Positions 6,035-6,190 of a DNA stretch of 34,080 nt are shown one piece after another; position 1 is the first letter of the stretch, and the number at the start of each line of letters is the position of its first letter. Where the stretch lies: the IMG/VR virus record IMGVR_UViG_648276671_000020, positions 1 to 34,080 of that record. One strand, written 5' to 3'. A program made the position numbers and the translations under genes. The stretch is from a virus. Lineage: Duplodnaviria; Heunggongvirae; Uroviricota; Caudoviricetes. The notes beneath the pieces were generated by a model. It saw only the letters and a program-made list of their open reading frames with translations, did no database searches and was not told the DNA's origin.

Positions 6035-6064
6035 AAAAAAACCACCCTGGCAGGTGGTTTTTTT
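6035..6064. terminator. Bidirectional intrinsic terminator
   Basis: A-run, hairpin ACCACCCTGGCAGGTGGT (about 6041..6058), T-run. Lies downstream of A (+) and of the small minus-strand ORF. Confidence 0.55.
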
Positions 6065-6076
6065 GTTTGAAGCATA

Positions 6077-6190
6077 CTAAAGAAAAATACTTACATGGAT
6101 ATTACTGACGTTTACTGACAAACCACTCGGACTACCGTTTGGATAGCCAAAGAGAGCCAGAACGAGAATGCAGTAGTAGCACTTCTTCAT
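6077..6190 (-). CDS. Small hydrophobic peptide, 37 aa (MKKCYYCILVLALFGYPNGSPSGLSVNVSNIHVSIFL)
   Basis: Below the track's size cutoff; found by hand. ATG preceded by AGGAGG at 6-nt spacing; stop lies just before the bidirectional terminator. Confidence 0.35.
   Translation of the reverse strand: MKKCYYCILVLALFGYPNGSPSGLSVNVSNIHVSIFL

Follow-up and report, generated by a model that had tools for sequence, protein, structure and literature searches.

A candidate type I toxin-antitoxin-style module with par-like geometry in P2-like prophages of Escherichia coli and plasmids of Klebsiella

The region adjoining the replication endonuclease gene (gene A) of a P2-like E. coli prophage is probably a type I toxin-antitoxin-style two-gene module of a new family with par(Fst)-like geometry, a reading that draws on comparison of its sequences and on analogy to characterized systems. 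A preliminary description of the window (i.e., the whole 34,080-nt stretch of DNA analyzed) had noted that a small minus-strand open reading frame (ORF) resembled type I toxin modules or small membrane regulators and would be missed by annotation, and this likeness was strengthened by the finding that the ORF is under purifying selection, has a fixed length, and is accompanied by a partner RNA gene. Two features of the type I class are present at the sequence level: a gene for a small, predicted membrane-targeted peptide and, at the same locus, an RNA complementary to its mRNA. The extent common to P2-like prophage and plasmid copies in alignments is as follows.

5905..6488, both strands: whole module, ∼600 bp

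Results

Evidence that the 37-codon ORF is coding

Inspection of the sequence bore out the minus-strand 37-aa ORF and consensus AGGAGG ribosome-binding site of the preliminary description.

6190..6188 (ATG) to 6079..6077 (TAG), or 6077..6190 with the stop, minus strand: 37-codon ORF encoding 37 aa, MKKCYYCILVLALFGYPNGSPSGLSVNVSNIHVSIFL
6195..6200, minus strand: Shine-Dalgarno AGGAGG, with a 4-nt spacer (CAAT) to the ATG

With 72 ORFs of at least 20 aa within 4.5 kb of the window, an ORF of 37 codons is by itself not beyond chance; what places it beyond chance is conservation across lineages rather than length alone. We compared ∼100 copies of the module from E. coli P2-like prophages, plasmids or contigs of Klebsiella, Enterobacter, and Citrobacter, and metagenomes. 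A first set, obtained from metagenomes and IMG/VR with a degenerate core pattern, comprised 70 copies (16 distinct CDS, 11 distinct peptides), and the ORF was exactly 37 codons long in every one of them. To avoid the bias of ORF-based selection, a second set of viral contigs was picked by the sequence of the small RNA (sRNA, see below) alone, and an intact 37-codon ORF was found in 30 of 30 loci, including one with the more divergent peptide MKRLSYCIILLTLLGYPLGSQSGWSVDISNISVSIVM; in one divergent lineage the ORF has 38 codons. Variable sites at codon positions 1, 2, and 3 numbered 15, 13, and 26, and dN/dS between lineages was 0.1–0.3 (Nei-Gojobori), a range that holds outside the pattern-constrained codons too. 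The ORF frame had a median pN/pS of 0.32 and zero stops, as compared to ∼1 or 11–23 stops in the other five frames. Start and stop codons are kept across lineages, with TAG and TAA interchanged, and the GGAGG of the Shine-Dalgarno is kept in every lineage except L078 (GGUGG). Judged by these comparative measures, the ORF is a real protein-coding gene of fixed length under purifying selection.

The N-terminus of the peptide is positively charged and is followed by a hydrophobic core of 13 residues resembling a signal peptide (CILVLALFGYP), a linker rich in G and S, and a C-terminus of alternating polar and hydrophobic residues; the peptide has a GRAVY of +0.7 to +0.9 and lacks both a PXXXG motif and a charged tail. 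The hydrophobic character attributed to it earlier applies to residues ∼4–16, to which hydrophobicity is confined, but not to the C-terminal half, which is polar with alternating residues. With an N-terminus reminiscent of a Sec signal or anchor, the peptide is predicted to be envelope-targeted with a short, polar tail; single-sequence AlphaFold produced a model of low confidence (pLDDT 66), which was set aside. The family is narrow: exhaustive phmmer against 1.84 billion representatives returned four clusters, all belonging to the family itself, and no meaningful match was found in Pfam, NCBIfam (E≤10), or PHROGs, nor did the peptide match the NCBIfam/Pfam family models of DinQ, ZorO, TisB, ShoB, Ibs, or Ldr (E≤10). 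Scanning GTDB species representatives with a protein pattern gave 83 pattern matches, none of which was confirmed.

The description of the ORF as unannotated is correct for RefSeq/PGAP, in which it has no feature among the matches listed (∼150 E. coli genomes), but not for some GenBank submissions, which name it a hypothetical protein (e.g., ECW_m2278, WFG40939.1) and sometimes lengthen it to 88–97 aa. The upstream in-frame extension underlying the longer versions is open solely where one TAG is lost and is unconserved. In the E. coli W lineage (L004 and related loci), for example, the in-frame TAG 20 codons upstream is AAG, giving an 88-aa frame through the conserved leader that is annotated by some pipelines; elsewhere, the same stretch is structured untranslated region (UTR). 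The surroundings had been called AT-rich and otherwise ORF-free, and the first part stands (41–45% G+C as compared to ∼55% in gene A), but two other ORFs overlap the leader (an 81-aa TTG ORF at 6187..6432 and a 39-aa ORF at 6251..6370), their frames being lost in other lineages.

A candidate convergent sRNA gene shares the terminator

The bidirectional hairpin reported to follow the ORF was located at 6034–6065, and the plus strand facing it carries a candidate sRNA gene.

6034..6065, both strands: bidirectional intrinsic terminator (A7-CCACC, loop CTGGCA, GGTGG-T7)
5956..5984, plus strand: candidate sRNA promoter from a consensus scan, with −35 TTGCGA (5956–5961), 17-nt spacer, and −10 CATAAT (5979–5984)
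∼5991..6066, plus strand: candidate sRNA of ∼75 nt, comprising the seed GAGCGAAGUCUUGCU (5992–6006, single-stranded 5′ end), stem-loop 1 (6008–6032), and the terminator hairpin with U-tail (6033–6066)

The terminator is a perfect 13-nt inverted repeat (CAAAAAAACCACC / GGTGGTTTTTTTG, 6034–6046 and 6053–6065) around a loop at 6047–6052, and RNAfold predicts a strong hairpin. An A-run borders one end and a T-run the other, so that the hairpin can terminate both strands, and the terminator portions of Rfam models match it on both. The distance from the ORF stop is 11 nt to the extended stem and 19 nt to the G+C core. Among lineages that are ∼65% identical overall, the terminator is nearly invariant, with one loop base and one stem base varying, each in a single lineage.

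All lineages retain both hexamers of the candidate sRNA promoter at a distance of 17 nt, but the spacer itself has diverged in sequence; transcription presumably starts at ∼5991. The sRNA has a predicted fold energy of −31.6 kcal/mol (z = −4.7), and stem-loop 1 contains six pairs with compensatory changes (RNAalifold, 12 variants). The sequence of this stem-loop differs in nearly every lineage (e.g., TCATC/GATGA, GTCCTT/AAGGAC, CCTCT/AGAGG, CTTTTTC/GAGAAAG, and CCTAA/TTAGG), but the hairpin is always retained. Searching 5500–7000 against Rfam 15 (E≤10) identified no family for the sRNA region; the only hits were terminator-driven partial matches (RNAI, Phe_leader, and others) far below gathering scores. 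The comparisons thus indicate that the ORF is always accompanied by a conserved sRNA gene complete with promoter and terminator. The gene converges on the ORF, and because the convergent transcripts share the terminator, the 3′ ends of the sRNA and the mRNA are complementary. An antisense sRNA promoter on the plus strand across 6077..6190 had been proposed as something to look for, and the promoter scan showed no promoter-like site there; a cis-antisense partner inside the ORF was ruled out in favor of the convergent sRNA at ∼5991–6066, predicted to pair via the 14–17-nt repeat in the 5′ UTR.

Predicted pairing of the sRNA with the mRNA leader

6256..6270, minus strand: target of the sRNA within the 5′ UTR, formed by the other copy of the direct repeat GAGCGAAGTCTTGC (6256–6269) plus one G·U pair

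The first 14 nt of the sRNA (GAGCGAAGTCTTGC, 5992–6005) recur as an exact direct repeat at 6256–6269, and no third copy of this 14-mer with up to 2 mismatches was found across the 34-kb window. One copy is read into the sRNA and the other, in the opposite sense, into the mRNA, which makes the seed complementary to the leader; the predicted duplex stops 65 nt short of the AUG and 55 nt short of the Shine-Dalgarno. The 10 distinct seed/target combinations compared all retain the pairing, as does L078, an eleventh lineage. The substitutions within the duplex all preserve pairing (U·G at positions 9, 14, and 15; G·U at 13), lineage L074 has a compensatory change from C-G to U-A and a 17-bp duplex, and the sole break affects the terminal pair in one lineage. 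Overall, 91.8% of seed-target cells are paired as compared to 26–52% in shifted registers. A shuffle control for seed-target covariation was not significant because the two sites hardly vary. We regard the sRNA-leader pairing, on these comparative grounds, as well supported though short of proven.

Extended, loop-containing duplexes calculated with RNAduplex from 40 nt of the sRNA were no better than shuffles, and only the contiguous core of 15–17 bp was retained. Another direct repeat, matching at 14 of 17 nt (GCGACTCTAAGGCAGAG at 5822–5838 and GCGCTTCTAAGGCGGAG at 6231–6247), lies upstream of the sRNA promoter. It was rejected as a pairing element, being less similar in strain ZH177 and missing from plasmid copies, and may be a product of chance or a relic of an older duplication.

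Structure of the leader and its candidate promoter

6282..6324, minus strand: conserved 5′ UTR hairpin, outer stem CUCUGUU/AACAGAG and inner stem GGUGAU/AUCACU
6330..6361, minus strand: putative mRNA 5′-end hairpin, GAAACAAC...GUUGUUC
6369..6401, minus strand: candidate mRNA promoter region, with an invariant −10 TA(A/G)AAT (6374..6369) and the conserved block TTGATGCAAA (6401..6392)

The hairpin at 6282–6324, just upstream of the sRNA target, has 100% of its cells paired and five pairs with compensatory double changes, a number not reached in any of 500 shuffles, and it is assigned to the minus-strand RNA because of a G·U pair. The putative 5′-end hairpin is predicted in most lineages, with differing sequences. 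The −10 and the TTGATGCAAA block are conserved in all lineages, but the −35 is weak and was missed by the consensus promoter scan, so assignment of the mRNA promoter is tentative; transcription would start near 6362.

In every lineage, the Shine-Dalgarno is predicted to be mostly paired (P(unpaired) 0.03–0.40), its partner being either a local C-rich anti-Shine-Dalgarno or a distal CCUCU. Long-range pairing with the CCUCU at ∼6320 was suggested by RNAalifold and set aside: neither side has a compensatory change, and the covarying hairpin at 6282–6324 explains the segment better. The folding models leave it as a possible alternative conformer.

No LexA box, as found upstream of tisB and dinQ, was seen in the upstream sequence when searched by eye. 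About 115 nt upstream of the proposed −10 (6375–6488, minus strand) are conserved in prophage and plasmid copies, with the blocks TTTTTACYTTG, ATCAAWAAA, and AAACATCYTTGATGCAAA; the stretch may serve as an UP element or a regulator site, or may contain a transcription start farther upstream. Copies of the E. coli type have an inverted repeat, GAGCT...AGCTC, at 6411–6431.

Distribution and genomic context

The window represents an E. coli prophage of the P2-like type, with gene A on the plus strand (ending at 5774) and the portal gene on the minus strand (8489–9478). This gpA-gpQ interval is a published P2 anti-phage hotspot (PMC9122126). The 1.1 kb at 5775–6909 has no RefSeq feature among the matches listed for ∼150 complete E. 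coli genomes sharing the region. The first ∼700 nt past gene A are 93–97% identical despite differing downstream cargo: the module is followed by an AAA-ATPase pair in E. coli W and by nothing else in strain AZ159, in which it is the sole occupant of the interval. A terminator-like hairpin with a T-run covers the last codons of gene A (5732–5765), and gene A seems, from this sequence, to have its own terminator distinct from that at 6034–6065.

The module was found in ∼150 E. coli prophages, or ∼3% of complete E. coli genomes. A 75%-identical copy lies on a Klebsiella-type plasmid, distant from any gene A, and tblastn located the peptide in 389 PLSDB plasmids (387 from Klebsiella, 2 from Enterobacter) and in just 3 phage records. 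These 389 plasmids carry the 600-bp module but not gene A, so the ORF is not the conserved 3′ end of gene A, a possibility raised in the preliminary description. A DNA pattern requiring two copies of the repeat recovered one true locus among GTDB species representatives, a Citrobacter freundii contig; the 4 other matches were chance tandem repeats in unrelated organisms.

Some loci have distinctive surroundings. On the Klebsiella plasmid pJ53-KPC_Vir (L003), an annotated dinQ type I toxin gene (4385–4522) lies ∼1.1 kb from the module as a separate gene; at L008 the module adjoins a gene for an SOS-response-associated peptidase (2918–3589); and IS elements flank the module at both loci. Metagenomic contig L035 (Ga0268256_1001162) carries the whole module twice, in diverged copies separated by 2.9 kb (3522–3553 and 6442–6473), each with its own sRNA variant.

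Discussion

The arrangement described above suggests how the module might work. The minus strand would be transcribed into a structured mRNA of ∼330 nt in which a 5′ UTR of ∼170 nt, with hairpins and a sequestered Shine-Dalgarno, precedes the 37-codon ORF and the terminator, and the plus strand would give the convergent ∼75-nt sRNA from its own sigma-70 promoter. The 5′ seed of the sRNA would form 15–17 bp with an accessible part of the leader that lies 65 nt before the AUG, with the shared-terminator complementarity in addition, and pairing would block ribosome loading (through standby or structure opening) and/or trigger cleavage, keeping the peptide off. If the sRNA decayed faster than the mRNA after gene loss or a stop in transcription, the peptide would be made and could damage the membrane; loss of the plasmid or prophage and host shut-off by an infecting phage are the triggers we envisage. 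The transcription start sites, the instability of the sRNA, repression, toxicity of the peptide, and its biological role are what we infer rather than what we observed.

The sequence comparisons do not distinguish a toxin from a non-toxic small envelope protein. A hydrophobic segment of ∼13 residues and the missing charged tail are atypical for helical pore-forming type I toxins, and searches of Rfam, Pfam, NCBIfam, and PHROGs linked neither gene to a known toxin or antitoxin family, a further point against a toxin-antitoxin reading. The peptide may instead be a non-toxic small envelope protein whose synthesis is tuned by the sRNA, making the locus a regulated accessory gene and not an addiction or suicide module; a modulator of host membrane proteins, a superinfection-exclusion factor, and a defense-related factor are candidates. 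The signal-peptide-like N-terminus, short hydrophobic core, and polar C-terminal half would suit such a protein, as would the position within the gpA-gpQ accessory-gene/defense hotspot, and TimP, the closest analogue in peptide type, causes no growth phenotype at native levels (PMC7667032). However, carriage on large conjugative plasmids and on prophages, sometimes as the only cargo, is harder to reconcile with it, as is the combination of a heavily structured mRNA with par-like geometry that is typical of type I toxin-antitoxin systems. We consider the non-toxic reading unlikely, albeit one that deserves serious weight.

The preferred reading, a type I-style module, is supported by a gene geometry matching that of the par locus of Enterococcus faecalis plasmid pAD1 (RNA I, the Fst toxin mRNA, and antitoxin RNA II) and its Gram-positive relatives, with convergent promoters, a shared bidirectional terminator, direct repeats, a sequestered Shine-Dalgarno, and a toxin of 33–37 aa (PMC7472228). 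As in par, convergent promoters and a shared bidirectional intrinsic terminator would give transcripts whose 3′ hairpins are complementary, and a direct repeat that enters the two transcripts in opposite senses would supply a second pairing region at the antitoxin 5′ end; intramolecular Shine-Dalgarno sequestration, toxin size, and location on plasmids and phages are also shared. The differences are that par has two repeats (DRa and DRb) and the module one, that the par repeats lie over the translation initiation region whereas the duplex of the module is 65 nt upstream of the AUG, and that the peptide, unlike Fst, has no PXXXG motif or charged tail and matches no Fst/Ldr model. Moreover, the module resides in Enterobacteriaceae, in which the Fst/Ldr members are regulated through another layout (PMC7472228).

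In peptide type and mode of pairing, the module resembles TimP/TimR of the ryfA locus of Salmonella and E. coli, in which a ∼38-aa peptide has an N-terminal sequence like a Sec signal and the toxin mRNA is bound in its 5′ UTR by the 5′ end of an sRNA that carries an intrinsic terminator (PMC7667032). Unlike the sRNA gene of the module, timR is divergent from and upstream of timP with no shared terminator, and timPR is chromosomal and core. The Rfam RyfA model (RF00126) had no match over 5500–7000 at E≤10, and exhaustive phmmer returned no TimP homologue. A separately encoded antitoxin sRNA with short complementarity to the toxin mRNA is also found in TisB/IstR-1 and DinQ/AgrB. ZorO/OrzO and RalR/RalA likewise have sRNAs that, as here, are encoded apart from the target site with short contiguous complementarity, several such systems being on prophages or islands; the complementarity of RalA to its target is given as 16 nt (PMC4041452), and OrzO is stated to repress zorO through base pairing (PMC3919570). 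In all of these systems the sRNA genes, unlike that of the module, are divergent or distant and share no terminator, and the toxins are unrelated in sequence to the peptide. Hok/Sok is similar in being carried on plasmids and prophages, in its small envelope-targeted peptide, and in its highly structured mRNA, but Sok is a cis-antisense RNA over the mok/hok initiation region; in the module, we found no Hok/Gef Pfam match, no conserved mok-like overlapping frame, and no antisense promoter over the initiation region.

A bolder proposal is that the module reinvents the Gram-positive par(Fst) layout in enterobacteria as a sensor of transcription shut-off for abortive infection or for prophage/plasmid addiction, with a signal-peptide-bearing, possibly processed, periplasm-facing toxin in place of a transmembrane helix. 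Such a sensor would explain the place at the edge of the P2 gpA-gpQ hotspot, the cases in which the module is the only cargo, and the presence on large Klebsiella resistance/virulence plasmids, but as a complete account we think it rather improbable.

The repeated 14-mer and the conserved blocks could instead be protein-binding or DNA-level sites, or the sRNA could act mainly in trans on other host or phage genes with its complementarity to the leader incidental; near-invariance of seed and target, weak formal covariation, and the unexplained conservation upstream of the −10 would all fit. However, we would expect neither the restriction of duplex substitutions to pairing-preserving transitions and one compensatory double change, nor the constant position of the repeat at the sRNA 5′ end and in the leader with opposite transcript senses, nor its lack of any further match (up to 2 mismatches) in the 34-kb window, and we give this alternative little credence. 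Least credible of all is a spurious ORF within a conserved non-coding 3′ region or regulatory RNA, since its shortness, its absence from PGAP annotation (among the matches listed, ∼150 E. coli genomes), and the high conservation of the non-coding flanks are outweighed by the exact length, the kept start and stop codons with their TAG/TAA swap, the third-position enrichment, a pN/pS of 0.3 in the ORF frame only, the conserved Shine-Dalgarno, and the existence of the module without gene A on plasmids.

Full-text searches for the peptide and seed sequences and keyword searches returned no description of the module in the literature, and both the toxin family and the sRNA look previously undescribed in Rfam 15, Pfam, NCBIfam, PHROGs, and the searchable literature. 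If the module is confirmed, the type I repertoire of Enterobacteriaceae would gain a toxin family and an sRNA that are both new and whose genes RefSeq omits, and part of the seemingly empty 1.1 kb beside gpA in the P2 defense hotspot would prove functional. The module is present on at least 389 sequenced Klebsiella/Enterobacter plasmids, including those of clinical K. pneumoniae (e.g., pKPN-498 of KPNIH1), and, if confirmed, may help to maintain prophages or plasmids or to exclude phages. Being compact and naturally varied, it can also serve as a model for translation control by an sRNA binding far upstream of the ribosome-binding site, and for an independent origin of the par-like convergent architecture, a layout that it would bring to enterobacteria.

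The remainder of the gpA-gpQ interval in the window holds two cargo genes. The first (6910–7395) encodes a CapP-like ImmA/IrrE M78 metallopeptidase (PADLOC capP E = 3e-28; Pfam Peptidase_M78) and the second (7463–8092) a 209-aa protein with a predicted membrane segment and no family match; together they may be an uncharacterized two-gene defense pair. The stretch preceding them (6480–6909) has 33–35% G+C, diverges among otherwise similar prophages, and contains a promoter-like site on the plus strand (6720–6747); it presumably serves to control the ImmA-like cargo.

The most divergent members of the family (37 and 38 aa; L074, 1501–1614; L075, 1009–1125; and L076) are found beside secretin genes (PF00263) and several small ORFs, a setting that is neither P2-like nor that of the Klebsiella plasmids and might be a filamentous prophage or a secretion/pilus island. 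Finally, many complete E. coli assemblies (e.g., L001, NZ_CP119441.1) begin exactly at prophage gene A (1–2277), with the match always at record position 2278; these chromosomes were apparently rotated to start at the P2 'replication' gene rather than at dnaA.
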